Assembly: GCA_944367495.1 (NCBI GenBank)
Contig: CALVWP010000005.1
Coordinates: forward strand, 1-48,687
Origin: an uncultured Bacilli bacterium
GTDB lineage: Bacteria > Bacillota_I > Bacilli_A > RF39 > UBA660
Reading direction: 5' to 3'
Length of the DNA: 48,687 bases
Shown here: positions 12,210 through 48,687 of the stretch, piece by piece
Layout: each line of letters begins with the position of its first letter
How positions within the stretch are numbered: the first letter of the stretch is position 1
Position numbers and translations under genes: made by a program
The notes under the pieces: model-generated
The model's input: the letters and a program-made list of their open reading frames with translations, nothing else
The model's database searches: none
Told to the model about the DNA's origin: nothing

Positions 12210-13474
12210 TTTGATCTAGCCCTCAAATACTCCGCAAATCCTAATAATAATTTTTTCTTTTCTAAATCTAAAAAGTCCAAATCTAAAATAGCTTTAAAAC
12301 TTTCATTAAATAACTCATCCATCATTTTTTCCGCATAATCGTGAGCTCCTGATTTATCAAAAATTTCCTTAACCTTTTCCATATCACTAATCTTAACATT
12401 TTTACCATAATATTTTAAAAGTTCATCTTTATATTCAGTATTTATAACATAAGCATATAAAATAGTTTGTTTAAACTCACTAACATCAGAAGTAACTGAT
12501 TTCCCTATATGCTTCTCATCCCCATAAATACCAATCAAATCATCTTTAATCTGAAAAGCCACTCCTAAATTAATCAAAGCATCTTCTAACCTATGTGTCT
12601 TTTCCTCATCACAGCCTCCTAAAATAGCTCCTAAAACATAAGGCCCAACCACTGAATACCAAGCAGTTTTTAACTTATAAATTTCCATAACATGACTTTC
12701 TACATCTTCTTCACCATAAAACTCTTCATAAAATGGTAAAATAACATCCACCATTTCTCCCTCACAAGTTTTAATAGCCACATCATTATAATATTCTAAA
12801 ACCCGATCTAAATTTTCATTATTTCTATAATTTTTAACAATCACCTGTAAAGCTAAATAAAACCCTAAATCACCTAAACATAAAGCCATTGAATTGCTGG
12901 TGTCTTTTCTCTTTACCTCAAAATCATTTCCCCCTTTAATCTGATCACTGTATATTTTTTGATATTTAATAGGAATTGTATCTAAACCTCTTCTTTTATC
13001 AGCTTTATCAATAATATCATCATGAATCAAAATAGAAGTTTGAAATAACTCTAAAGCAATACCTAAAGCTAAATAATCATTATCATTCTTAAAACTTTGA
13101 TAGCCTAAAGCAATTAAACATGCTCTTAAAAACTTACCACCTTTATTACTGGAAGTAAATTGTTCTAAAGCCTCCTGTAAAAACCTGTTATTATAACCTT
13201 TAACAAATAAATCATTGTAATCATCCATCTTTAAAACAAATTCATCTTTAACCTTTAAATAATATTTCAAAAAGGAATACATTACCTCTATTTTTTTTAC
13301 TTCTCCATCTTCATCTAAAATAAATCCAATTTTTTTATTATATAAATTTTTATCACCTAAAAACCATCTTAAAAACTCTTCCCCATTTTTTAAAACAACA
13401 ACCTCATCATTATTATATTCCCTATTACTTATAACATAATCGTTTTCTTTTATTATCTTATCAACCTCAGACAT
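12206..13474 (-). CDS. Polyprenyl (trans-isoprenyl) diphosphate synthase with an N-terminal extension
   Basis: First and second Asp-rich motifs LIHDDIIDKAD and FQIKDDLIG. Chain-length specificity cannot be called. Confidence 0.85.
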   Translation of the reverse strand: MSEVDKIIKENDYVISNREYNNDEVVVLKNGEEFLRWFLGDKNLYNKKIGFILDEDGEVKKIEVMYSFLKYYLKVKDEFVLKMDDYNDLFVKGYNNRFLQEALEQFTSSNKGGKFLRACLIALGYQSFKNDNDYLALGIALELFQTSILIHDDIIDKADKRRGLDTIPIKYQKIYSDQIKGGNDFEVKRKDTSNSMALCLGDLGFYLALQVIVKNYRNNENLDRVLEYYNDVAIKTCEGEMVDVILPFYEEFYGEEDVESHVMEIYKLKTAWYSVVGPYVLGAILGGCDEEKTHRLEDALINLGVAFQIKDDLIGIYGDEKHIGKSVTSDVSEFKQTILYAYVINTEYKDELLKYYGKNVKISDMEKVKEIFDKSGAHDYAEKMMDELFNESFKAILDLDFLDLEKKKLLLGFAEYLRARSK

Positions 13475-13561
13475 ATCAAATCCTCCTAAAATAATTGTAC
13501 CAAATCGCTGAACCGAAGTCTAGTAACCTTAAAAACAAAACAAATTAAAAATTTTTACACT

Positions 13562-13585
13562 CAAAAGCGACCGCTCAGCGATCGC
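13562..13585 (-). terminator. Rho-independent terminator ending the remote DGR-target transcript
   Basis: GC-rich hairpin GCGATCGCTGAGCGGTCGC followed by TTTT on the minus strand. It lies just distal to the conserved 146-nt module. Confidence 0.55.
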
Positions 13586-13652
13586 ACCTATACTTGCTTT
13601 TTAGCTATTTTACTGCATTTATTTATTCACATACATTTTTTATATATTTTAT

Positions 13653-13798
13653 ATTACTAGCATTATCCCTAAAAATTCGTGTCAATTGCTTAGATCATCA
13701 AGCAATTGACAATCCCTTGCGAGGTCTCGTTTTCACTCGCCCCGCTTTCCAAAACTCCTTTGGAGTTTTGCTTATGTGAAAAACTTTCATTTATCACC
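13653..13798 (-). repeat. Conserved 146-nt post-VR module, copy 1, with two perfect hairpins (13681..13710 and 13750..13770)
   Basis: Identical to 46363..46508 (offset exactly 32,710 bp) except inside the two hairpin loops. Stems are GTCAATTGCTT/AAGCAATTGAC and CAAAACTCC/GGAGTTTTG. Confidence 0.9.
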
Positions 13799-15064
13799 CT
13801 AATTTATCACAAACGGATCTAAAGCTTCTCCACTTCCACTCAAGCTGATATCTGAACTTAGAGTAATGGCGGGAAGAACCGCAATAGCATTACGCGCGGT
13901 GTAGCTGTCCAAATAGCCGTAGGTGCGCACAACAAAGACGCTGAAAGAATCACTGGCATAAGGCGATATTGTCCAATAATCTGTTCCTTTAACTAGCCAA
14001 TTCGTTGTTTTACATGTATTATAGTTATCATTATTTAAACTTAAACTTCCACATTGATCTTTGTTTGTATTGGCTCTTAAATATTCACTGGCTGTAATGA
14101 GTCCTACACTGGCTGTCTGTGACTGTGTTCCATTTTCAGCTGCTATTTGATCGGCTAAATCGTTATTATCATAAGTTTCTCCACCTATACTCCATGTACT
14201 AGGTACTATCTTATCTTGATTTGTCGTTATACTCTCTAAATATTCGCCATTTAAATATGTCTTTAAATCAGCTGGTCTATCCCAACTGTTTGAACCCATT
14301 GATACACCAGTTGTATCAAATGTTCTTTTGGAAAGTAATTCATTTCTGACAATCTTTATTCTACCATCTGCTTCGACTGAAAGTATTCGCCATGTTTCAT
14401 TGTTAAAAGTGATATAGTTGTTAGGATTAGTTCCTTTATAAATAAATCTACCACTTTCATATTCATCTTGATATAATCCATCACCTTCAGTAACAGCTAA
14501 TGCTTTTAAATCATCTGAAGTAATTTCAGATGGTGTTGGTGGGATTACTGTACCATTACTTTGTCCATAATCTAATGTTACCGTAATTGTGGCAGTCGTA
14601 TTTTCTGGTTGACTGGTAATACTTGGGTTATAAGTTACTATTACCGTTAATATATCAGTCTCTGATGCTTTTAATTCATCTCCCTCTTCTATTCCACTTG
14701 TCTCAAACGTTATAGCTTCATTATTTGAATTATTTACTTTTATGCTATTTAAAACAGCATCTATATTTCCCTCATTAGCTACCGTTATATCATATTTCAT
14801 CGAATCTCCCGGTGATACTAAATTTGTTTTAAAAGTAGCTGTTGTATCTGTATAACTAGGTTCTATGGCATTACTTGCACTCCCACTTTGTACATTACTT
14901 TGTATATCAGTTATTCTAACTAAGAAATTACTTCTTATATTAGATGTACCGGTTATTTTTAACTGACTTTGAAATGCGGCATAACCTACTACCATTATCA
15001 ATAATATCGCACATAGTCCCATTATCATATAATTTCTCTGCGTCCTATTTAATCTTCTATTCAT
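13799..15064 (-). CDS. DGR target protein, remote copy: signal-anchored secreted/surface protein with a hypervariable C-terminal domain
   Basis: Paralog of 46509..47777. N-terminal anchor NYMIMGLCAILLIMVVGYAAF. The C-terminus contains VR1. Start taken at ATG 15064 after GGGAGTGA; the track start is a GTG inside the RBS. Confidence 0.85.
   Translation of the reverse strand: MNRRLNRTQRNYMIMGLCAILLIMVVGYAAFQSQLKITGTSNIRSNFLVRITDIQSNVQSGSASNAIEPSYTDTTATFKTNLVSPGDSMKYDITVANEGNIDAVLNSIKVNNSNNEAITFETSGIEEGDELKASETDILTVIVTYNPSITSQPENTTATITVTLDYGQSNGTVIPPTPSEITSDDLKALAVTEGDGLYQDEYESGRFIYKGTNPNNYITFNNETWRILSVEADGRIKIVRNELLSKRTFDTTGVSMGSNSWDRPADLKTYLNGEYLESITTNQDKIVPSTWSIGGETYDNNDLADQIAAENGTQSQTASVGLITASEYLRANTNKDQCGSLSLNNDNYNTCKTTNWLVKGTDYWTISPYASDSFSVFVVRTYGYLDSYTARNAIAVLPAITLSSDISLSGSGEALDPFVIN
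13857..13966 (-). repeat. DGR variable repeat VR1 (remote target), including IMH at its 3' (low-coordinate) end
   Basis: 110 bp, collinear with TR 46230..46339. In the variable part, 19 of 20 differences fall at TR adenines on the coding strand; one non-A change is at 13923. The IMH-type end GCGGTTCTTCCCGCCATTACTCTAAG is identical to VR2. Confidence 0.9.
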
Positions 15065-15144
15065 TACTTTCACTCCCTATTTTCTAGTATAAATACTCAT
15101 AGCTATTTTATACCAAATTGTTATAAATTCTATCTTATAGTTAA

Positions 15145-21718: not shown

Positions 21719-21755
21719 TAAATAATTAATTTCTTCATTATTTGTTTTGGTTTGT

Positions 21756-21824
21756 TTTGTTCATTATTAGTATTCCTAACACTTATTATATAGAAAAAAA
21801 GATTTAAAATCTTTACATAATGAC
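21756..21824. repeat. Direct repeat, copy A, of the tRNA-Trp terminator / fic RBS-start region
   Basis: About 70 bp, roughly 90 percent identical to 22394..22464 (TTTGTTCATTATTAG.A.TCCTAACA.TTATTATAT..AAAAAAAGATTTAAAATCTTTA..CATAATG). Confidence 0.75.
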
Positions 21825-21865: not shown

Positions 21866-22402
21866 TTAATCATTAGTTTCATAATAATACGATGTTTCAA
21901 TTCCTTTAAAAAAAGAGTCTAAACTGAAATCATCTGTCAAATTATTTTCTATTAAAGTTTTAATTTCTAATGTATTAATTGGACTTCTTTCCATAGCTTG
22001 TAAATATAATTTTTTATCTATATTTTCCCAATTAACAATTTTGTTTAACCTTTTTTTTAATATCAAATCTAACCATATTCTTGTGGCGCGACCATTTCCT
22101 TCTAAAAATGGATGGGCAATATTCATTTCAACATATTTATTAATAATATCGTCTAACGTATTTTCTTTCATGGTTTCTATTTTTTTTAAAATATCTTCTA
22201 AATATAAAGTATTGGCAAATCTAAAATTTCCTTTAGAAATATTTTTTTCCCTAATTTGACCCGCAAAATCATACAAACCATCAAATAAATATTTATGTAT
22301 TTGCCTTAATCCTTTAACTGTACCAATTTCAATGCTATTAATGTCATTATTTGCAAATAATCTTTTTGCATTTTCTAAACTTTTTTCATCTACTTTGTTC
22401 AT
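21866..22402 (-). CDS. fic: Fic/DOC family protein (putative AMPylase)
   Basis: Canonical Fic motif [12 protein letters not shown] (HxFx[D/E]GNGRxxR). Start at ATG 22402 after AGGAG. C-terminal SYYYET resembles a class III inhibitory SxxxE[G/N] helix, but imperfectly. Confidence 0.85.
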
Positions 22403-22464
22403 TATTAGCACTCCTAACAATTATTATATTAAAAAAAGATTTAAAATCTTTAAATCACATAATG
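22394..22464. repeat. Direct repeat, copy B (tRNA-Trp terminator / fic 5' end)
   Basis: See 21756..21824. Contains the hairpin AAAGATTT/AAATCTTT plus a T-run that terminates the tRNA on the minus strand. Confidence 0.75.
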
Positions 22465-38944: not shown

Positions 38945-39454
38945 ATGAACCACAATTTTAAAAATGGTGAAGAACTATTTAAAGCCATACTTACTGACCC
39001 TCAAATTTTAGAAACACTACCAATTAATTATAAATATGATACAGATTTTTTAGAAACATTTTATATTATTTTAGAAGATCAAATTAAACCATATATCCCA
39101 AAAGAAATCTTTAGTATTTTAAAACATCATGATGTCATTTTTAAAAATAATCATCCGATAAAACTAAAATACAAACCCCAAGTTACTTTAAAAGATGAAG
39201 CAGAAATATTACACGATCTTTTAACTGATCCCAAAACAATCGAAACTATACCAACTAATGATAAATACAATAATGATTTTTTAGAAATGTTATATATTAT
39301 TTGGGAAGATGAAATTGAACCTTATATTCCCAAAGAAATGTTTGAAACGTTAAAAAATGAAGCTTTAATGCATGAATATCATCACAATCATCAATTAAAA
39401 CAAAAAATATGGGTCAAAGAAGAACATGCTAAAAAGTTAAAGGAGTTACCTTAA
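38945..39454 (+). CDS. Hypothetical protein built from two tandem ~85-aa repeats
   Basis: AILTDPQILETLPINYKYDTDFLETFYIILEDQIKPYIPKEIFSILK is repeated as DLLTDPKTIETIPTNDKYNNDFLEMLYIIWEDEIEPYIPKEMFETLK. Confidence 0.55.
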   Translation: MNHNFKNGEELFKAILTDPQILETLPINYKYDTDFLETFYIILEDQIKPYIPKEIFSILKHHDVIFKNNHPIKLKYKPQVTLKDEAEILHDLLTDPKTIETIPTNDKYNNDFLEMLYIIWEDEIEPYIPKEMFETLKNEALMHEYHHNHQLKQKIWVKEEHAKKLKELP

Positions 39455-40655: not shown

Positions 40656-41085
40656 TTAATTTTTCAGTAAATTATAACAATTTCCCCACTTTAAATGGCC
40701 TTTATAACTATTTATAATTTGTAAAGCTTTTCTTTCATCCACCTTACCCATTTTTATAACCCTCATTTTTCTTTTAAACCGCTTCTTTGTGTCTTTCCTA
40801 ACTTTCATAATAATTTTATTATTCCAAATATAAAACCTAAATCCTAAAAAACCTATACCCTCTTTACTGACATTAATAATTTTCGTTTTCTTATTTAATT
40901 TTAACTTATATTTACTAACCATTTCCTCTATTTTCTTTAAACAATACTTTAAATATTTCTTGTCAGAGGAAAGTAATAAACCGTCATCCATATACCTTAT
41001 GTAATATTTAATGTGTAATTTTTCTTTAATAAAATGATCCAATTCATTTAAATAAAATACCGCCATGATTTGACTAGTCATATTC
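40656..41085 (-). pseudogene. DGR reverse transcriptase, C-terminal fragment (split by RIT insertion)
   Basis: Begins ..IGN-MTSQIMAVFYLNELDH (RT motif 4, SQ). Contains RYMDDGLLL (YxDD catalytic motif) and a thumb-like C-terminus. The frame continues from 44539 once 41092..44542 is removed. Confidence 0.88.
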
Positions 41086-41115
41086 CCTATATTATGTAAA
41101 TCTTTACATAAAATT

Positions 41116-41193
41116 GGTTATAGCAACTAAAATATTATAGAAAGTAATATGTGAGAAAGCTTATATTTACAAGAATTTATTTTATTAATTTTT
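41116..41193. repeat. RIT terminal inverted repeat, left
   Basis: GGTTATAGCAACTAAAATATTATAGAAAGTAATATGTGAGAAAGCTTATATTTACAAGAATTTATTTTATTAATTTTT is the exact reverse complement of 44461..44538. Confidence 0.9.
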
Positions 41194-41251
41194 GCATAAT
41201 ATTATTGCATTTTTTTAATAATTTTGAAAATACTAGTTTTAGGTGAATTTT

Positions 41252-42475
41252 ATGGAACGATTAAATTTGAAAGATTTATTGAACCGAGCTGAAAAAATTT
41301 TAAGAGAAAAAAAATATAGTGAGAGTACAATTCAAGATTATAAGTATGTTTGGAAAAAATTTTATAATATATGTGAATTATGTAATATAAAATATTTCGA
41401 TTTAGAATTGGCAAAAAAATTTTTAAAAATATATTATAATATTGATTTAAAAAATGGAAAAGGAAGATTATATACAAGAAGAATGCGTAGTATATATGTA
41501 TTAGATTCTATTGATAGGAATAAACCAATAAAAAATTTTAGACCTAAAGTAGAAAAAAGGTTACCAGAAGAATTTAATGATATTTTTTATGAATATGATG
41601 AATATTTAAAATCTAATTATTCTTATAATACTATAATGGCAAGTGAGAAAGTATTAGTTGATTTTTTTAAATATTTAAAACAAAATAATATAAATTCAAT
41701 AGAAAATATAGCAATTCAAAATATATATAATTTTGTAAATTCTATTAATACTCAAAAATATTCCTTAAATACAATATATGAAATTAAATATAAATTAAAA
41801 AATTTTTTTAAATATTTATATAATAATCATAAATATAAATTTGATGGAACTGATATTTTTCCAAAAATTGCAAAATTTGAAAGAAGTAAATTGCCATCTT
41901 ATTATACAATAGATGAAATAAATCAAATTTTAAAACAAGTAGATAGAAATACAAAAAAAGGAAAACGAGATTTTGCAATTCTTTTATTAGCAATTGTATA
42001 TGGATTAAGAAACTCAGATATTGTACATTTAAAAAAAGAAAATATTTTATGGAATGAAAATAAAATTGAGTTAGTTCAATATAAAACTAAAAGATTATTA
42101 GAATTACCTTTAACTGAAAATGTGAAATATTCATTATTAGATTATTTAAAAAATGCAAGACCAAAAATTAACACACCATATATTTTTTTACCAACAAAAC
42201 CACCTTATACTTATACTGATATGAAAAATTATTCTTCATTATATAAATCAGCTGAACAATATATAAATAAAGCAGGTATAGATGTAAAGAATAGAAAAAG
42301 AGGATTACATTCATTAAGACATAGTCTTGCATCTAATATGTTAAAAAATAACATTGAAATATCAACAATTTCAGGAGTCTTAGGTCATAGTAACATCAAT
42401 GTTACAAATATATACTTAAACATAAGTGAAAATCAGTTGAGAAAACTTGCATTGGAGGTTCCAAAATATGAATAG
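41252..42475 (+). CDS. Tyrosine recombinase, RIT subunit A-like
   Basis: Catalytic residues: R (YGLRNSD), HSLRHS, GHSNINVTNIY. Start at ATG 41252 after AGGTGA. Confidence 0.85.
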   Translation: MERLNLKDLLNRAEKILREKKYSESTIQDYKYVWKKFYNICELCNIKYFDLELAKKFLKIYYNIDLKNGKGRLYTRRMRSIYVLDSIDRNKPIKNFRPKVEKRLPEEFNDIFYEYDEYLKSNYSYNTIMASEKVLVDFFKYLKQNNINSIENIAIQNIYNFVNSINTQKYSLNTIYEIKYKLKNFFKYLYNNHKYKFDGTDIFPKIAKFERSKLPSYYTIDEINQILKQVDRNTKKGKRDFAILLLAIVYGLRNSDIVHLKKENILWNENKIELVQYKTKRLLELPLTENVKYSLLDYLKNARPKINTPYIFLPTKPPYTYTDMKNYSSLYKSAEQYINKAGIDVKNRKRGLHSLRHSLASNMLKNNIEISTISGVLGHSNINVTNIYLNISENQLRKLALEVPKYE

Positions 42476-43430
42476 TAATAACTTTATAGGACCTTTTAAA
42501 AATGTTGCTCCATTATATATTGAATATAAAAAAAGTTTAGGATTTGAGGCTAAGTCAGAATATAATGAATTGAAAAAATTAGATAGATATTTTTATAATA
42601 AAGGAATTAATGAAGTAAAACTTACAAAAGATATGGCAGAAGAATACGGAATTTTAAGAGAAAATGAATCTCCTAAAACTCAAGCCAAGCGATTATCTAT
42701 ATTAAAACAATTTGCTGTATATTTGCAAAAAATAGGATATTCAGATGTATATGTACATCACATAAAGCCTAATAAAATTGATTCCAAATTTAAACCATAT
42801 ATCTATTCAGAAAAAGATTTAAATATGATATTTGAATATTTAGACAAGCACCAATATGATACTAATTCAATATTTAATCGCGTTTTACCAATATTAATTA
42901 GAATACTATATGGGACTGGGCTTAGAAAAGGTGAAGTTATTAATTTAAAAAATGAAGACGTAGATCTGAATAAAAACATTATAACTATTTATAATGGCAA
43001 AGAAAATGTTACAAGAATAGTTCCAATCTCAGAAAGTCTTTCAGAATCAATTAAAATATACAAATCGAAATTTTTATGTAATAATCAATATTTTTTATGT
43101 GATTCTAAAGGAAATAAAATCAATTATCATATTACAGAATATTTTCAAAAAATATTAAAAAAAATAAATATATTGCGACCAGATGGGACTCCTCCAAGAT
43201 TTCACGATTTTAGATTTACATTTGCAGTAAATGCATTAGAAAAAATGGATAATAGTGGACAAGACTTATATACAACATTGCCTATTTTAAGTAAATATTT
43301 GGGACATAAAAATATAGAAGCAACAGAATATTATTTATTGTTAGCTAAAGATTATTTCGTTAATATAACTGATAAAGAGGAAAAATATTATAATGATTTT
43401 AAATTTATTAAGGATGATGAAAATGAATAA
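42468..43430 (+). CDS. Tyrosine recombinase, RIT subunit B-like
   Basis: R (GTGLRKGE), HDFRFT, GHKNIEATEYY. Start at ATG 42468 after GGAGG, in an ATGAATAG overlap with the upstream stop. Confidence 0.85.
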   Translation: MNSNNFIGPFKNVAPLYIEYKKSLGFEAKSEYNELKKLDRYFYNKGINEVKLTKDMAEEYGILRENESPKTQAKRLSILKQFAVYLQKIGYSDVYVHHIKPNKIDSKFKPYIYSEKDLNMIFEYLDKHQYDTNSIFNRVLPILIRILYGTGLRKGEVINLKNEDVDLNKNIITIYNGKENVTRIVPISESLSESIKIYKSKFLCNNQYFLCDSKGNKINYHITEYFQKILKKINILRPDGTPPRFHDFRFTFAVNALEKMDNSGQDLYTTLPILSKYLGHKNIEATEYYLLLAKDYFVNITDKEEKYYNDFKFIKDDENE

Positions 43431-44439
43431 AAAGGAATTAGATTATTATTTACAAAGGTTTTTAGATATTGAATTAAAAAAAAGTATTAATGTTTCTGAA
43501 AATACTATTATTTCGTATAAATTTGCTTTCATATCGCTTTTAGAATTTATTATTAAAAATTATAATAAAAATATTAAAGATATAAAAATTGAAACAATAA
43601 ATAAAAAAGTTATTATAGAATATTTAAATTATTTAGAATTAGTAAAGAAAAATTCTATTTCAACTAGAAATCAAAGATTAGCGGCAATAAAATCTTTTTA
43701 TAATTATTTAGCACTTGAAGAAATTGAATATTTGCCACTATGCAATGATATTCTTTCAATAAAAACAAAAAAAAGCAATCACAAAACAGTAAAATATTTA
43801 TCAAAAGAAGGTGTAAAAGAAATATTATCTTTACCAAACACTTCGACTAAGCAAGGTATTAGAGATTTAGCTATATTAACTTTATTATATGATTCTGGAG
43901 CAAGAGTTCAAGAATTAATAACGTTAAACATATGTGATTTAAATTTAAAAAATAAAACATTAAATTTATATGGCAAAGGAAGAAAAAATCGTACAATACC
44001 TTTATTAAGACAAACAATAAAAATTTTAGAAAAATATATTAAAATCTATAAGATGAATTTTAATAGCCCTAGTTTGTTATTTTTTAATAGTAAAAAAGAA
44101 GCTCTATCAAGAATGGGTGTAACTTATATAATAAATAAATATGTAAAAATAGCTAAAAAAAAGAACCCAATAGAATTTCAAATAAAAGTAACACCACATA
44201 TTTTTAGACATTCTAAAGCAATGCATCTTTTAGAAAGTGGAGTGAACCTAATATATATTAGAGATTTTTTAGGTCACGAAAGTGTAACAACTACAGAAAT
44301 TTATGCTAAAGCAAATCCTGAGATAAAAAGAAAAGCAATAGAAACAAATTCAAAAGAACTTTCAAAAACGATTCAATTTTCAGATAAAGAAAAAAAAGAT
44401 TTATTATGGTGGCTTAAAAATTCTTTAAAAGAAAATTAA
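43423..44439 (+). CDS. Tyrosine recombinase, RIT subunit C-like
   Basis: R (SGARVQE), HIFRHS, GHESVTTTEIY. Start at ATG 43423, in an ATGAATAA overlap with the upstream stop. Confidence 0.85.
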   Translation: MNKKELDYYLQRFLDIELKKSINVSENTIISYKFAFISLLEFIIKNYNKNIKDIKIETINKKVIIEYLNYLELVKKNSISTRNQRLAAIKSFYNYLALEEIEYLPLCNDILSIKTKKSNHKTVKYLSKEGVKEILSLPNTSTKQGIRDLAILTLLYDSGARVQELITLNICDLNLKNKTLNLYGKGRKNRTIPLLRQTIKILEKYIKIYKMNFNSPSLLFFNSKKEALSRMGVTYIINKYVKIAKKKNPIEFQIKVTPHIFRHSKAMHLLESGVNLIYIRDFLGHESVTTTEIYAKANPEIKRKAIETNSKELSKTIQFSDKEKKDLLWWLKNSLKEN

Positions 44440-44460
44440 TATTTTTAATAAATATTATGT

Positions 44461-44538
44461 AAAAATTAATAAAATAAATTCTTGTAAATATAAGCTTTCT
44501 CACATATTACTTTCTATAATATTTTAGTTGCTATAACC
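44461..44538. repeat. RIT terminal inverted repeat, right
   Basis: Exact reverse complement of 41116..41193. About 10 further bp inward match with one mismatch. Confidence 0.9.
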
Positions 44539-45231
44539 TATAGGAAGTCCCTTACCTTTTTCGTATAATGGAATATTTTCTATCTCTTTAATCACTTTCT
44601 TATAATGATTATTTAAAATATTCATATTTTGCACTTTATTTAACTCTTTATCTTTTAAAAACTGTATTTCCCCATTAACATAATCCATATCAGTCGATTT
44701 TATTATTTTCCAAATAATATTTAAACTATCTTTATCTTTTATCTTTGTTTTTAATAAATCAAATAAAATTTCATGATCAATACTATAAAAATATTTACTT
44801 ATATCAAATTTCAAAGCATAAATAGTATTCCCCTTTAATTCATTTAAATATTTCTTTAAATATCTAATTCCATAGTGCGTTCCCTTATTTTTTCTAGTAG
44901 CTACATTCGTATCAATCAAACATTTATCTAAAACCGGTAATAAAATCTTATCAGCTACCACATGATTAATTAACTTATCACTAATATTTTGACTCATTAT
45001 AATTCTATATTTTGGCTCTTTAATTAAAAATATATTATACTTACTAGGCATATAATTTTTATCATTAATTATTTTTTTAACTCTAGCTAAATTAACCGAA
45101 TAAAAATCTTCAAACTTTCTTATTTTAACTTTATTCTTAGTATTAACTCTTATTTGCCTTAAATAAACTCTCTTAATATCTTCAAAAGTAATACTATCAT
45201 ATAACTTTCTTTTCATATTTAATCCATCCAT
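44524..45231 (-). pseudogene. DGR reverse transcriptase, N-terminal fragment (frame runs into the RIT repeat and stops)
   Basis: RT motifs 1-3 (EPKYRIIMSQNISDKLINHVV, ATRKNKGTHYG, ALKFDISKYFYSIDH). Native sequence ends ...KGLPIG at 44539. The last residues YSN and the stop are encoded by the RIT inverted repeat. Confidence 0.88.
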
Positions 45232-45541
45232 AAAGTAATCTTAAAATATCAAGTAAATGCAGACTAACCTTTTGATATTTTTTATATGAAATATATTTCT
45301 TATCACAAGATACTTTCAAATAAAAATCAAGCATCTTAATTTTTACAATAGCCTTAAATTGATATTTTTTTCTTTTATCTCTAAACTCGTTAGCCATATA
45401 TAAAATTTCTAATAAATCATAAAGCTCTTCTCTAATCTTATCTTTTAATACCCTCTCATTACTCGGAAAATTAACAACAATCTTATCTAAATATAAAATA
45501 GTTTTCTTTAACTCGGTTATAATATTTAAACTATCTTTCAT
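45197..45541 (-). CDS. avd: DGR accessory variability determinant (Avd-like four-helix-bundle protein)
   Basis: 114 aa, basic and all-helical. FPSNERVLKDKIREELYDLLEILYMANE pattern. Sits directly upstream of the RT and overlaps it, as Avd genes typically do. Confidence 0.75.
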   Translation of the reverse strand: MKDSLNIITELKKTILYLDKIVVNFPSNERVLKDKIREELYDLLEILYMANEFRDKRKKYQFKAIVKIKMLDFYLKVSCDKKYISYKKYQKVSLHLLDILRLLYGWIKYEKKVI

Positions 45542-45942
45542 ATGATCTCTTCAATAGCCTCCAAAATAATACTTATCTTAGAAGTATCTTTCAAAACCAT
45601 AAGTTTTTCACATATCCTATCAATCCTAACACTAATACTATCATCACATCTAACATATTTATCATAATTATTGTTATTAAATTTCTTTTTAGTAATATTT
45701 ACACCCTCAACAATCAAATAATTAATCTTAAAACATTTAAGTTTATCAGTAACTTTGTTATAAGCAATCAAAGGAAAACCAACTCTTCTAACACCACCAA
45801 CCTCTTTAATCTTATAATCAAATAAATTATTCATTAAATAAGTATCTTCACCATAAGTTTCATAAAAATTCCCAACTTTAATTAAAATAACATACTTGTC
45901 GTATTTTTTCTTCTTTTCACTGTAAATATCATAAATTTTCAT
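45538..45942 (-). CDS. MutS domain I-like (mismatch-binding-domain-only) DGR accessory protein
   Basis: YVILIKVGNFYETYGEDTYLMNNLFDYKIKEVGG..VRRVGFPLIAYNKVTDKL aligns by eye with E. coli MutS [51 protein letters not shown]. The Phe-x-Glu motif (FYE) is retained. ATGA overlap with avd. Confidence 0.65.
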   Translation of the reverse strand: MKIYDIYSEKKKKYDKYVILIKVGNFYETYGEDTYLMNNLFDYKIKEVGGVRRVGFPLIAYNKVTDKLKCFKINYLIVEGVNITKKKFNNNNYDKYVRCDDSISVRIDRICEKLMVLKDTSKISIILEAIEEII

Positions 45943-45956
45943 AAAACATCCCTCCC

Positions 45957-45997
45957 ATAAAAAAGCAATACCAAATAATCAAATAAAGGTATTGCTT
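45957..45997 (-). terminator. Terminator/attenuator-like hairpin between the TR region and the accessory genes
   Basis: Minus strand AAGCAATACC, 15-nt loop, GGTATTGCTT, then TTTTAT, immediately followed by RBS GGGAGGG and ATG 45942. Confidence 0.45.
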
Positions 45998-46229
45998 AAA
46001 TTTAAAAATATAGGTTTTATCATATCATATCTTTTTCGAAATTTCTAAAATTATAATTTACATATTCCATCATAATTATAACTCTTTCCTACTAAAGTTA
46101 TCTCTGACTATATTTAGTTTTTAGTCAGTAATTTTATTAAGGATATATGAAACCCTAATTACTAACAAGGAATAACACTTATTCTCTAATCTTTTCTTTA
46201 TGACCATATTAGTTCATAAACCATAGTGC

Positions 46230-46339
46230 TTTAGAGAGTTGGCGGGAAGAACCGCATTAGTATTATTCGCGTTGTTGTTGTTCAAATTGCCGTTGCTGTT
46301 CACATTAAAGACGTTGTTAGAATTACTGGCATTAGGCGA
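46230..46339 (-). repeat. DGR template repeat (TR)
   Basis: 110 bp. The coding-strand reading encodes SPNASNSNNVFNVNSNGNLNNNNANNTNAVLPANSL (15 AAY codons, 33 adenines in the variable part). Collinear with VR2 and VR1. The 3' end (IMH*) GCGGTTCTTCCCGCCAACTCTCTAAA differs from the VR IMH at 4 positions. Confidence 0.92.
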
Positions 46340-46362
46340 ATAAAACTAACAAAAAGTCCCAC

Positions 46363-46508
46363 ATTACTAGCATTATCCCTAAAAATTCGTGTCAATTGCT
46401 TGATGATCCAAGCAATTGACAATCCCTTGCGAGGTCTCGTTTTCACTCGCCCCGCTTTCCAAAACTCCAAAGGAGTTTTGCTTATGTGAAAAACTTTCAT
46501 TTATCACC
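46363..46508 (-). repeat. Conserved 146-nt post-VR module, copy 2, with hairpins at 46391..46420 and 46460..46480
   Basis: Identical to 13653..13798 apart from the two hairpin loops (GATGATCC vs AGATCATC; AAA vs TTT). Confidence 0.9.
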
Positions 46509-47777
46509 CTAATTTATCACAAACGGATCTTCAACTTCTCCACTTCCACTCAAGCTGATATCAGAGCTTAGAGTAATGGCGGGAAGAACCGCACCAGTAC
46601 TAAACGCGCCGTCGCTGGACAAAGTGCCGTCGCTGCTCACACGAAAGACGCTGGAAGAACTACCGGCATAAGGCGATATTATCCAATAAAAACTGCCTTT
46701 AAATAGCCAATTCGTCGTTTTACATATATCTTTGTTATCATTATTTAAACTAAAACTTCCACATTGTTCTTTATTTGTATTGGCTCTTAAATATTCACTG
46801 ACTGTAATTAAACCTACACTGGATGTCTGTGACTGAGTTCCATTTTCTTTTGTTATTTGTCCAGCTAAATCATTATTATCATATGTTACTTCTCCTATAC
46901 TCCATGTACTAGGTACTATTTTATCTTGGTTTGTTGTTATACTCTCTAAATATTCGCCATTTAAATATGTCTTTATATCTGCTGGTCTATCCCATTCATT
47001 TGAGCCATATGTTCCACCAGTTGTATCCCATGCTCTAGCCGAAAGTAATTCATTTCTAACAATCTTTATTCTGCCATCAGCTTCTACTGATAATATTCGC
47101 CATGTTTCATTGTTAAAGGTGATATAGTTGTTAGGATTAGCTCCTTTATAAAAGTATCTTCCACTTTCATATTCATCTTGATATAATCCATCAGCTCCAT
47201 CTGAAGCAAGTGGTAGAGTTATTCCTCCTACTGTTGGTCCTTCTGGCGTTGGTGGAGTTACTGTACCATTACTTTGTCCATAATCTAAAGTTACGGTAAT
47301 TGTTGCTGTCGTATTTTCTGGTTGACTGGTAATACTTGGGTTATAAGTTACTATTACCGTTAATATATCACTCTCTGATGCTTTTAATTCATCTCCCTCT
47401 TCTATTCCACTTGTCTCAAACGTTATAGCTTCATTATTAGAATTACTTACTTTTATACTATTTAAAACGGCATCAATATTTCCCTCATTAGCTACCGTTA
47501 TATCATATTTCATCGAATCTCCTGGTGATACTAAATTTGTTTTAAAAGTAGCTGTTGTATCGGTATAACTAGGCTCTATGGCATTACTCGCACTCCCACT
47601 TTGTACATTACTTTCTATACCAGTTATTTTAACTAAGAAGTTACTTGCTATATTAGATGTACCGGTTATTTTAAGCTGGCTTTGAAAAGCCGCATAACCT
47701 ACTGCCATTATTAAAAGTACTGCACACAGTCCCATGATCATATAATTTCGCTGCGTCCTATTTAATCTTTTATTCAT
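46509..47777 (-). CDS. DGR target protein, element-adjacent copy: signal-anchored secreted/surface protein with a hypervariable C-terminal domain
   Basis: Paralog of 13799..15064. Anchor NYMIMGLCAVLLIMAVGYAAF. VR2 encodes SPYAGSSSSVFRVSSDGTLSSDGAFSTGAVLPAITLS. Start at ATG 47777 after AAAGGAG. Confidence 0.88.
   Translation of the reverse strand: MNKRLNRTQRNYMIMGLCAVLLIMAVGYAAFQSQLKITGTSNIASNFLVKITGIESNVQSGSASNAIEPSYTDTTATFKTNLVSPGDSMKYDITVANEGNIDAVLNSIKVSNSNNEAITFETSGIEEGDELKASESDILTVIVTYNPSITSQPENTTATITVTLDYGQSNGTVTPPTPEGPTVGGITLPLASDGADGLYQDEYESGRYFYKGANPNNYITFNNETWRILSVEADGRIKIVRNELLSARAWDTTGGTYGSNEWDRPADIKTYLNGEYLESITTNQDKIVPSTWSIGEVTYDNNDLAGQITKENGTQSQTSSVGLITVSEYLRANTNKEQCGSFSLNNDNKDICKTTNWLFKGSFYWIISPYAGSSSSVFRVSSDGTLSSDGAFSTGAVLPAITLSSDISLSGSGEVEDPFVIN
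46567..46676 (-). repeat. DGR variable repeat VR2 with IMH
   Basis: All 22 differences from the TR in the variable part fall at TR adenines on the coding strand. The GC-rich GGTTCTTCCCGCC element is followed by the IMH. Confidence 0.92.
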
Positions 47778-47830
47778 TGCTCTCACTCCTTTATTATGAA
47801 TATTTAGTCGCTTATTTATGCTACAATTTT

Positions 47831-47859
47831 ATTATAATTTATTTTTAAACATAAAACAA
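47831..47859 (-). promoter_or_regulatory. Candidate proximal promoter of the adjacent DGR target
   Basis: Minus strand TTGTTT, 17 nt, TATAAT, about 50 nt upstream of ATG 47777. In AT-rich DNA this could be a chance match. Confidence 0.4.
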
Positions 47860-47978
47860 CAATTATTTTTCTGTCTCAATATCATCTCCTCATTGAATAT
47901 CCTTGTACCTCCTATTTTAATTATAAAGCACATTCCTCTTCTAAGCAATACATTCACCTATATTCTACATATATTTTA

Positions 47979-47997
47979 CCCCCCCCCCCCCCCCCCC
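47979..47997. repeat. C19 homopolymer (G19 on the gene strand) between -35-like and -10-like hexamers
   Basis: Counted directly: 19 consecutive C. Minus strand reads TTGAAG-TTT-G19-TAAAAT, a 22-nt spacer. Confidence 0.9.
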
Positions 47998-48076
47998 AAA
48001 CTTCAACACATTTTAATCATTTTTTTATTTAAAAACCTCCCTCCCCTTCAAAAAAAAAAACCTACCTATTTTCAAA

Positions 48077-48101
48077 TTTTTTTTTCCCCCCCCCCCCCCC
48101 C
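48077..48101. repeat. T9C16 compound homopolymer (G16A9 on the gene strand)
   Basis: Counted directly. Nearby are A11 at 48050..48060 and G7 at 48163..48169. A consensus TTGACA (RC of 48109..48114) lies 7 nt upstream of G16 on the minus strand. Confidence 0.9.
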
Positions 48102-48180
48102 TATAAAATGTCAAGCAATTTTACACTTTTTCTAATTTTTTATAAAAATAAATTTATTATAAGGGGGGGTAAAATATTGC

Positions 48181-48206
48181 AAAAAAAGAATGCTTATTTT
48201 GCATCC
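48181..48206 (-). terminator. Rho-independent terminator of rplQ
   Basis: Minus strand GGATGC-AAAATAA-GCATTC with the stop codon in the loop, followed by T7. Confidence 0.55.
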
Positions 48207-48550
48207 TCTTCAACTAAAGATAAAACAACCATTAAAGCGTCGTCTCCTCTTCTTTCATCAATTTTAGAAATTCTAGTATAGCCGCCATTTCTTTTAGCAT
48301 ATCTAACTGCTAAAACATCAAATACTTTTTTAACAGTATCTTTATCATTATGTAAGAACGCTAAAGCTTTTCTTCTAGCTACTAGTGATCCATCTTTACC
48401 ATAAGTAATTATTTTATCGACAAACTTACGAACTTCTTTAGCTCTAGTTTCAGTAGTAATAACTCGCTCATTATTGATAACATCTTTAGTTAAATTAGCT
48501 AGCATGCTTCTTCTATGTTTGTTGTCGCGTCCTAATTTTCTATAAGCCAT
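48194..48550 (-). CDS. rplQ: 50S ribosomal protein L17
   Basis: [20 protein letters not shown]... is the canonical L17 N-terminus. RBS GGAGGGAA. Confidence 0.96.
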
Positions 48551-48564
48551 TGATTCCCTCCTAA

Positions 48565-48687
48565 CTAATCTTCATCACGGAATTTAAGTCCCATATCTTT
48601 AATTTTGTCTATAACTTCTTTTAAAGATTTTTTACCTAAATTACGAATTTTCATCATTTCTAATTCTGATTTTTCAGTTAAATCACC
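48565..48687 (-). CDS. rpoA: DNA-directed RNA polymerase alpha subunit, C-terminal end (5' part beyond the window)
   Basis: My translation: [40 protein letters not shown]. This is the alpha-CTD helix-hairpin-helix, located upstream of rplQ as in most bacteria. Confidence 0.85.

Follow-up and report, generated by a model that had tools for sequence, protein, structure and literature searches.

The stretch of DNA analysed here, referred to below as the window, comprises the 48,687 nucleotides of contig CALVWP010000005.1 (assembly GCA_944367495.1) from an uncultured Bacilli bacterium. It carries a diversity-generating retroelement (DGR) with two target genes, each followed by a nearly identical copy of a hairpin-rich block. 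Judged from its sequence, the locus is a genuine DGR that has an adjacent target and a second one at a distance of 32.7 kb, because the mismatches of the variable repeats (VRs) fall at adenines of the template repeat (TR) and because a small accessory gene of the MSL type, a bAvd gene and a reverse transcriptase (RT) gene lie 3' of the TR. All these features are on the minus strand. Target gene 1 (13799..15073, 424 aa) and target gene 2 (46509..47786, 425 aa) are paralogues, and both products have DUF6273 and an Ig-like domain. The core of VR1 (13868..13966) has 19 of its 20 mismatches to the TR at TR adenines, and that of VR2 (46578..46676) has 22 of 22. The TR core (46241..46339) begins 23 nt past the end of the hairpin-rich block behind target gene 2 and is followed by the MSL-type gene (45538..45942; MutS_I domain, 134 aa), which lies between TR and avd, and by the bAvd accessory gene (45197..45541). 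Accessory genes of this small MutS_I class have been reported in a minority of DGRs (PMC5758913). The RT is present in two parts, an N-terminal one (44524..45231, RVT_1 profile positions 7-107) and a C-terminal one (40656..41081, RVT_1 profile positions 126-205, YMDD included). VR and TR have a common GC-rich end, the initiation of mutagenic homing (IMH) sequence GCGGTTCTTCCCGCC, beyond which the sequences diverge. The target protein has about 1,800 homologues, nearly all metagenomic; those found on genome contigs place it in uncultured gut Bacilli with small genomes and many paralogues.

Alignment of the regions behind the two targets showed a repeated block of 168 nt (13653-13820 and 46363-46530), made up of the last 22 nt of each target gene and its 3' untranslated region (UTR), in which the copies differ at 10 positions only, all of them in the loops of two perfect inverted repeats. 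The uniformity of the block is unusual because the adjoining gene bodies are only about 86-95% identical between the two loci. The first inverted repeat, hairpin A, follows the pattern GTCAATTGCTT-N8-AAGCAATTGAC (13681-13710 and 46391-46420) and has arms of 12-13 bp; the second, hairpin B, follows the pattern CAAAACTCC-N3-GGAGTTTTG (13750-13770 and 46460-46480) and has arms of 9 bp. The remainder of the 168 nt surrounding the loops is identical, and each pattern occurs twice in the window and not at all in 100 shuffles. On the plus strand the hairpin A loop reads AGATCATC in the 13.7-kb copy and GATGATCC in the 46.4-kb copy, with seven differing positions (13692-13698 / 46402-46408). The reverse complement of AGATCATC is GATGATCT, which agrees with GATGATCC at 7 of 8 positions. 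In hairpin B the three differing positions make up the whole loop, TTT at 13759..13761 against AAA at 46469..46471 on the plus strand, a reverse-complement match of 3/3. Read on the sense strand of the targets, hairpin A of the RT-adjacent target copy (46390..46421, minus strand) is TGTCAATTGCTT-GGATCATC-AAGCAATTGACA, and the copy at the second target, which lies at a polyprenyl-synthase locus (13680..13711, minus strand), carries the loop GATGATCT, the reverse complement of the other copy's loop with one C-to-T change in addition. Hairpin B of the RT-adjacent copy (46460..46480, minus strand) is CAAAACTCC-TTT-GGAGTTTTG and that of the polyprenyl-locus copy (13750..13770, minus strand) has the sense loop AAA. 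The changed bases agree with the reverse-complement prediction in 10/10 cases, for which our own arithmetic gives a chance of (1/3)^10 = 1.7e-5. An earlier note on this DNA had described two copies of a post-VR module of 146 nt, differing only in two hairpin loops that were inverted in place between perfect inverted repeats, with one extra change in hairpin A; the comparison bears this out, the block being 168 nt long. The stem of hairpin A has 13-14 pairs, 5 of them G-C, and folds as DNA with -13.4 kcal/mol (z = -7.3) in the RT-adjacent copy; hairpin B has, as read from the sequence, 4 G-C pairs of 9. The fold energy is about equal for either loop orientation on either strand.

The loops were then read, always on the sense strand, in related contigs (L numbers) fetched through the target proteins and through neighbouring genes. 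At the RT-adjacent locus, the window and L101 have the B loop TTT and the forward A loop GGATCATC; the partial contig L104, which does not cover hairpin B, has the same A loop; L102 combines TTT with the reversed A loop GATGATCT; and L103, which has a different TR, has AAA together with an A loop ATTTGG on a different, compensated stem (ACATG/CATGT). At the polyprenyl-synthase locus the B loop was AAA throughout, and the A loop was GATGATCT (reversed) in the window and L113-L115, GATGATCC (reversed, stem AACTG/CAGTT) in L116, GGATCATC (forward, with a one-arm mismatch) in L003, L090, L091 and L093-096, and GATGATTC (reversed, with the compensated stem ACTTG/CAAGT) in L092 and L098-100. A third locus, ligase/hrcA (L083-088), has the B loop TTT and a module cut off 5' of hairpin A, which is absent. 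The hairpin A loop of L116 is the exact reverse complement (8/8) of the window's GGATCATC, and the reversed alleles GATGATCT and GATGATTC are each one C-to-T away from it. Hairpin A was found in both orientations at the RT-adjacent locus as well as at the polyprenyl locus, and all four combinations of the B and A orientations occur (4/4). The orientation of hairpin B is nearly locus-specific, AAA at every polyprenyl copy and TTT at every ligase/hrcA copy. Contigs reached through the upstream helix-turn-helix gene break inside the target gene and do not cover the module. The hairpin A pattern had two matches in metagenome contigs, L001 and L002, both unrelated chance palindromes.

These alleles leave little room for an assembly or sequencing artefact, or for chance point substitutions, as the source of the pattern. 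L101, which is 100% identical to window positions 42038-46732 (4,695 nt), has the 46.4-kb allele and L114 and L115 have the 13.7-kb one, and the three are separate assemblies; each allele recurs in independent assemblies from different samples (L101, L102, L104, L113-L116). In addition, the stems of 9-14 bp are, by our reasoning, far below assembler k-mer length, and point substitutions occurring by chance are at odds with the 10/10 agreement given above, so that neither explanation is credible. The check proposed in the earlier note, a search for both loop orientations in other isolates, was thus positive for hairpin A at two loci, and the outcomes that would have spoken against inversion, an assembly error or random loop substitutions among relatives, were not encountered: the relatives show reverse complements.

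A comparison between near-clonal sequences bears on how the loops may have changed. L116 differs from the window at 5 positions in 4634 nt, and 3 of these are in hairpin A, namely the loop-closing base and the paired stem positions 13686 and 13705, which are compensatory; by our own arithmetic the probability that 3 of 5 differences fall in a 32-nt hairpin by chance is about 3e-6. Since two of the differences form a base pair, they point to one arm having been copied from the other. The loop orientation is the same as in the window copy at the polyprenyl locus, and L116 therefore marks a continuing mutational hotspot, not a flip. L003 has a one-arm mismatch and the forward loop, L098 has a compensated stem and the reversed loop, and the two look like the intermediate and compensated steps of one process. 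In a screen of perfect hairpins in the window and all fetched loci, 476 groups were obtained, 21 of them seen in at least 2 sources, and loop polymorphism was found in hairpins A and B only, in both cases as reverse complements; because this denominator is small, the screen is hardly informative on rates across the genome. Other micro-inversions between strains were also sought with BLAST, in a screen that proved too crude: the hairpin A flip that separates L102 from the window at the RT locus, already known, escaped it, and its three reverse-complement-like matches were all without inverted-repeat flanks.

The explanation which we prefer, with a probability of roughly 0.7, is inverted-repeat-mediated micro-inversion of hairpin loops combined with gene conversion, in which the flips are neutral or nearly so and the module serves as a structured spacer between VR and TR. 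In such a process the nascent strand would switch template across the hairpin during replication, or the two arms would recombine, and the loop would be inverted; the same event could copy one arm onto the other and so produce compensatory changes in the stem. Gene conversion between the paralogues would keep the rest of the module identical. The flips would have little or no effect on fitness, and the hairpins would be read for their shape, probably on the sense strand, and not for the sequence of their loops. The pattern, from which we infer the mechanism, does not distinguish arm recombination from template switching, and near-neutrality is what the history of the alleles suggests. The earlier note had invoked hairpin or cruciform extrusion with intrastrand template switching or recombination. 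The paired stem change in L116 fits the part concerning intrastrand templated mutation, and extrusion of a cruciform from duplex DNA found no support. Nor do the flips amount to evidence that these DNA structures form in vivo, as had been proposed; they show only that the arms paired or recombined at some point, which is general to inverted repeats.

Quasi-palindrome hotspots are familiar from Escherichia coli, and the present hairpins may be related to them. A single template switch in a hairpin has been reported both to turn the loop around and to introduce compensatory changes (PMC8794818); the likeness lies in a single event that can both invert a loop and copy an arm, as in the paired double change of L116 in its near-clonal background, and the difference is that here the mechanism is read from the pattern. 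The 'small inversions' of plastid genomes, A-form and B-form loops between short inverted repeats, show the same pattern, with a loop of few bases reverse-complemented, unchanged flanks, equal fold energy and both forms scattered among close relatives (PMC6824564). The present case differs in being bacterial and chromosomal, in having two paralogous copies in one genome homogenised by gene conversion, and in its location in a DGR-associated module. In site-specific invertible switches (fim, hin, shufflons) a segment between inverted repeats likewise occurs in two orientations, but the inverted segments here, at 3-8 nt, are much shorter than a recombinase needs for synapsis, and dedicated sites were looked for in vain. 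Flipping by the tyrosine recombinases encoded nearby was rejected on account of this length and because their genes belong to a separate mobile element.

Three hairpins, of which A and B are the outer two, make up a conserved module of about 145 nt. The RT-adjacent copy (46363..46508, minus strand) is 3' UTR to target gene 2 and at the same time leader to the TR, with an RNA fold z of -4.5; the second copy (13653..13798, minus strand) is the 3' UTR of target gene 1, has no TR after it, and has an RNA fold z of -4.3. Along the sense strand the stop codon is followed by hairpin B, a middle hairpin M, hairpin A and, last, a conserved tail CGAATTTTTAGGGATAATGCTAGTAAT (46363-46389). Hairpin M (46429..46453, minus strand; second copy 13719-13743) reads GGGGCGAGUGAAAACGAGACCUCGC on the sense strand, contains a GAAA inner loop and does not differ between the copies. 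A covariance model, R1, was built from close copies of the module. Its matches are confined to the window's sub-lineage, with full-length matches also in L004, L042, L014 and L015; other lineages have different modules of similar layout. In the alignment 98% of the cells are paired; a shift of the 3' partner by one to three columns lowers this to 22-44%. In hairpin A both sides are changed in 10 of 13 pairs, the wobble pairs comprise 10 sense-strand G-T against 2 A-C (antisense wobble), and in hairpin M of the relatives C-to-U changes retain a sense-strand wobble pair. We regard this covariation, which is strong in hairpin A, as supportive and not decisive, because the alignment is model-fitted and the sequences are related. 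The window region 44000-48687 gave no match in Rfam 15 at E <= 1, and the module core was not found in viral contigs.

In distant relatives (L014, L015, L009, L021, L022, L068, L040) the hairpin equivalent to B usually has a sense GAA loop closed by C-G, with GATA in L040, and the middle hairpin retains a core resembling GCGAAAGC. We take the C-G-closed GAA loop and this core to be motifs of unusually stable DNA and RNA mini-hairpins. A minority has T-rich B loops: L018, L030 and, within the lineage of the window itself, the TTT copies, those of L004 and L042 among them.

Across the clade, VR and TR of the master loci are invariably separated by 150-200 nt of structured spacer (window, L103, L042, L009, L032, L040), and some remote targets are without a module, namely L078 and L055, which match the TR of L009, and L117. 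For these reasons we read the module as a VR-TR spacer, that is, as leader of the TR RNA and 3' UTR of the target, which is its most likely role; duplication of target units would have carried it along, after which gene conversion would have kept it uniform. A different role, as single-stranded sense DNA that holds the target open at the replication fork, is conceivable. The RNA of the BPP-1 DGR offers a parallel, in that structured non-coding sequence directly flanks the TR. There the structured spacer with a function follows the TR on its 3' side and avd coding sequence borders it on the 5' side (PMC12875486), and in the window the module is 5' of the TR and doubles as target 3' UTR, with a function that is predicted. 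Remains of a similar arrangement were seen at the polyprenyl locus of related strains (L090:3913-4200, L092 and L098, orthologues of window 13474-13653), where the module is followed by a decayed, A-rich, TR-like repeat, with an internal tandem duplication of about 40 nt in L092 and L098; beyond this repeat are what is left of a further target 3' end and the opening bases of a further module, and there is no RT in the vicinity. This TR-like segment has been lost from the window.

Hairpin A might also be nothing more than an intrinsic terminator or an mRNA-stabilising 3' hairpin of the target, with an unconstrained loop and an incidental DGR context. Both window copies pass a simple terminator scan, being terminator-like on the sense strand with a stem of 13-14 bp followed by CGAATTTTTA, the wobble bias favours the sense strand, and the plastid small-inversion hairpins have been assigned to mRNA stability (PMC6824564). 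Against this, the U-tract is absent in relatives which keep the hairpin (L004, L042, L014, L015, L103), and a canonical GC-rich terminator stands further 3' at remote loci (window copy 1, L083, L004); in the window it lies at 13567..13585 (minus strand), 3' of the first target's module, and reads GCGATCGCTGAGCGGTCGC followed by TTTT. At the master locus a strong terminator would furthermore keep target transcripts from continuing into the TR, which begins 23 nt further on, and the scan showed no promoter-like site between the two. Since the U-run is confined to the window's lineage and the canonical terminator is found further 3' at remote loci, it is unlikely that hairpin A is just a terminator. 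The downstream terminator, of the form GCGAC(C/T)G-loop-C(A/G)GTCGC then TTTT, recurs after many target paralogues of different genomes (window 13567-13585, L083, L004, L011, L017, L065). A TR promoter inside the module was also considered and rejected, as the spacing between TTGACA, which is part of the 3' arm of hairpin A, and GATAAT is just 10-12 nt and a scan found no sense-strand promoter.

The earlier note had stated, accurately, that the Bordetella phage DGR needs a hairpin or cruciform 3' of the IMH for target recognition, and had suggested that flipping the loops could change the targeting competence of one locus. In BPP-1 and related phage DGRs an inverted repeat with a GC-rich stem of 7-10 bp lies 4-34 bp after the VR; its 4-nt loop has the consensus 5'-GRNA on the sense strand, and replacement of GAAA by CTTT nearly abolished homing (Guo et al., PMC3240598). 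The hairpins of the window could be functional equivalents of this element, with a loop orientation that tunes or switches retrohoming at each locus. As in the phage, the inverted repeats are 3' of the VR and absent 3' of the TR: the two copies of the module in the window both follow VRs, none is 3' of the TR, and the RT-adjacent one abuts the 5' side of the TR. The structures are conserved with covariation, which recalls the finding that stem shape outweighs stem sequence in BPP-1, and the first hairpin of distant relatives usually has a purine-rich sense loop (GAA, AAA) closed by C-G, reminiscent of GRNA (PMC3240598). The orientation of the targets would also suit this reading. The GC skew of the plus strand is negative throughout the window, and most open reading frames, including both DGR targets, are on the minus strand, so that by the usual Firmicutes rule the targets are probably co-directional with replication and their sense strand would be the lagging-strand template. 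Co-directional orientation has been reported to favour DGR editing, and a stem-loop on the lagging-strand template has been proposed to aid cDNA annealing (PMC12875486); a weaker functional analogy with BPP-1 by this route is possible.

The details do not agree with a phage-type target hairpin. From the IMH end at 46578, which is GC-rich, the distance is 97 nt to hairpin B and 156 nt to hairpin A, in keeping with the 90 to 170 nt of the earlier note and well outside 4-34 bp. The stems are AT-rich and 9-14 bp long instead of GC-rich and 7-10 bp long, and the sense loops are UUU/AAA and AUCA/UGAU, both orientations of which are natural; only the inner loop of hairpin M is GAAA. Unlike the phage hairpin, then, these loops tolerate inversion in nature, and the module of three hairpins (about 145 nt) to which they belong borders on the TR as well. 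A palindrome in VR2, AAGCTCTGATATCAGCTT, was examined as a candidate for a phage-type hairpin directly after the IMH and rejected, as it is coding sequence and is not kept in VR1.

The VRs themselves also argue against a switch. Orthologous VRs differ between strains at 19-32 positions, 68-100% of which are at TR adenines, and such rewriting is seen beside AAA or TTT, beside forward or reversed A loops, beside the truncated module without hairpin A (L083) and where there is no module (L117). The remote targets L078 and L055, which match the TR of L009, are without that genome's module, and clade-wide the module always stands just 5' of the TR. Because every loop state adjoins a rewritten VR, an on/off role for loop orientation is disfavoured, and because position, stems and loops all depart from the BPP-1 type, a targeting switch is unsupported; we consider it very unlikely, and neither the comparison with phage target hairpins nor the change in targeting competence put forward in the earlier note was sustained. 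Highly improbable, too, is the further idea that the module is an undescribed cis element of a gut-Bacilli DGR lineage, common to the 3' flank of the VR and the 5' flank of the TR, and a single-stranded sense scaffold (RNA or lagging-strand template DNA) for RT, Avd and MSL, with the loop flips acting as a stochastic, locus-by-locus modulator of diversification. The data argue that the loop sequence is not read in this lineage, unlike in BPP-1.

The exchange of sequence between the paralogues is evident from three single-nucleotide polymorphisms (SNPs) in the last codons and the start of the module, which separate strains into the haplotypes CCG..GTG..AAAT and CCA..GTA..AAAC. Within a strain both paralogues have the same haplotype, the first in the window's two copies and the second in L102 and L113. 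Such concerted 3' ends of the targets (window 13799-13830 / 46509-46540 against L102 and L113) occur at loci 32.7 kb apart. As the strain-specific SNPs are common to both paralogues, we conclude that these regions evolve in concert by gene conversion. The flips stand out because gene conversion resets ordinary divergence to zero, and for the same reason the sharing of alleles between loci is expected. DGR cDNA was considered as the agent that homogenises the module and was rejected, as there is no adenine mutagenesis in the module and the sequence 3' of the TR differs.

Several observations weigh against the preferred account. With gene conversion at work, one ancient inversion per hairpin could in principle explain all the alleles, two old forms being shuffled since then by gene conversion or homologous recombination with no recurrent flipping. 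The paralogues clearly exchange sequence, as the strain-specific SNPs common to the loci show; the derived allele GATGATCT, including its extra C-to-T, is present at both loci (L102 and the 13.7-kb copy of the window); and the AAA of every polyprenyl copy and the TTT of every ligase/hrcA copy suit old, locus-bound forms of hairpin B. On the other side, the 4/4 combinations of B and A orientations would need very short conversion tracts, as the two loops are only about 60 nt apart, the loop orientation changes along with stem compensation between L003 and L098, and near-clonal L116 has 3 of its 5 differences from the window in hairpin A, a hotspot with unchanged orientation and not a flip. A single inversion per hairpin is on this evidence possible and not probable. 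The loop alleles are those of assembled contigs and speak to differences between strains, not to flip-flop within a population or its rate. The covariation counts derive from a model-fitted alignment of only 11 distinct, related sequences, and the excess of wobbles on the sense strand is slight, comes without phylogenetic independence and is of a kind that the aligner favours. Rewriting of a VR may predate a given flip beside it. Finally, present-day activity of the DGR is doubtful because its RT is split by a mobile element.

This element of 3.4 kb (window 41113-44541) interrupts the RT gene between the two parts given above. It contains three overlapping tyrosine-recombinase genes on the plus strand (41243-42475, 42447-43430 and 43393-44439), is bounded by 118-nt inverted repeats (41113-41230 / 44424-44541) that are 87% complementary, and is similar in size and layout to 'recombinase in trio' elements (PMC3414803). 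Among the relatives L101 has all three recombinase genes, L102 a truncated RT along with the beginning of the inverted repeat, and in L103 and L104 only the truncated RT is present. VR2 differs between L101 and L102, both with an interrupted RT, at 21 positions, of which 20 are TR adenines. This could be explained if VR2 had diversified before the element inserted, if the insertion spread by recombination, if the element can be excised reversibly, or if a second RT acts in trans. Further direct repeats in the window are one of 198 nt (38956-39153 / 39187-39384, 71% identical) and one of 64 nt (21745-21808 / 22383-22446, 78% identical).

On the sequences compared, the loop inversion is real and is a tidy example of a mutation class of the replication-slip kind that is already known, and it gives no evidence of a new switch. 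It provides a clean bacterial, population-level case of hairpin-loop micro-inversion with a templated compensatory change, and illustrates that perfect stems can be maintained by the mutation process itself. The module is the more interesting lead, being a conserved, covarying element of three hairpins between VR and TR, copied after remote targets in gut Bacilli and lying outside both Rfam and the phage hairpin rules. Its natural variants, with both loop orientations, compensated stems, a truncated module or no module, are ready-made constructs for asking what a DGR target needs 3' of the IMH.

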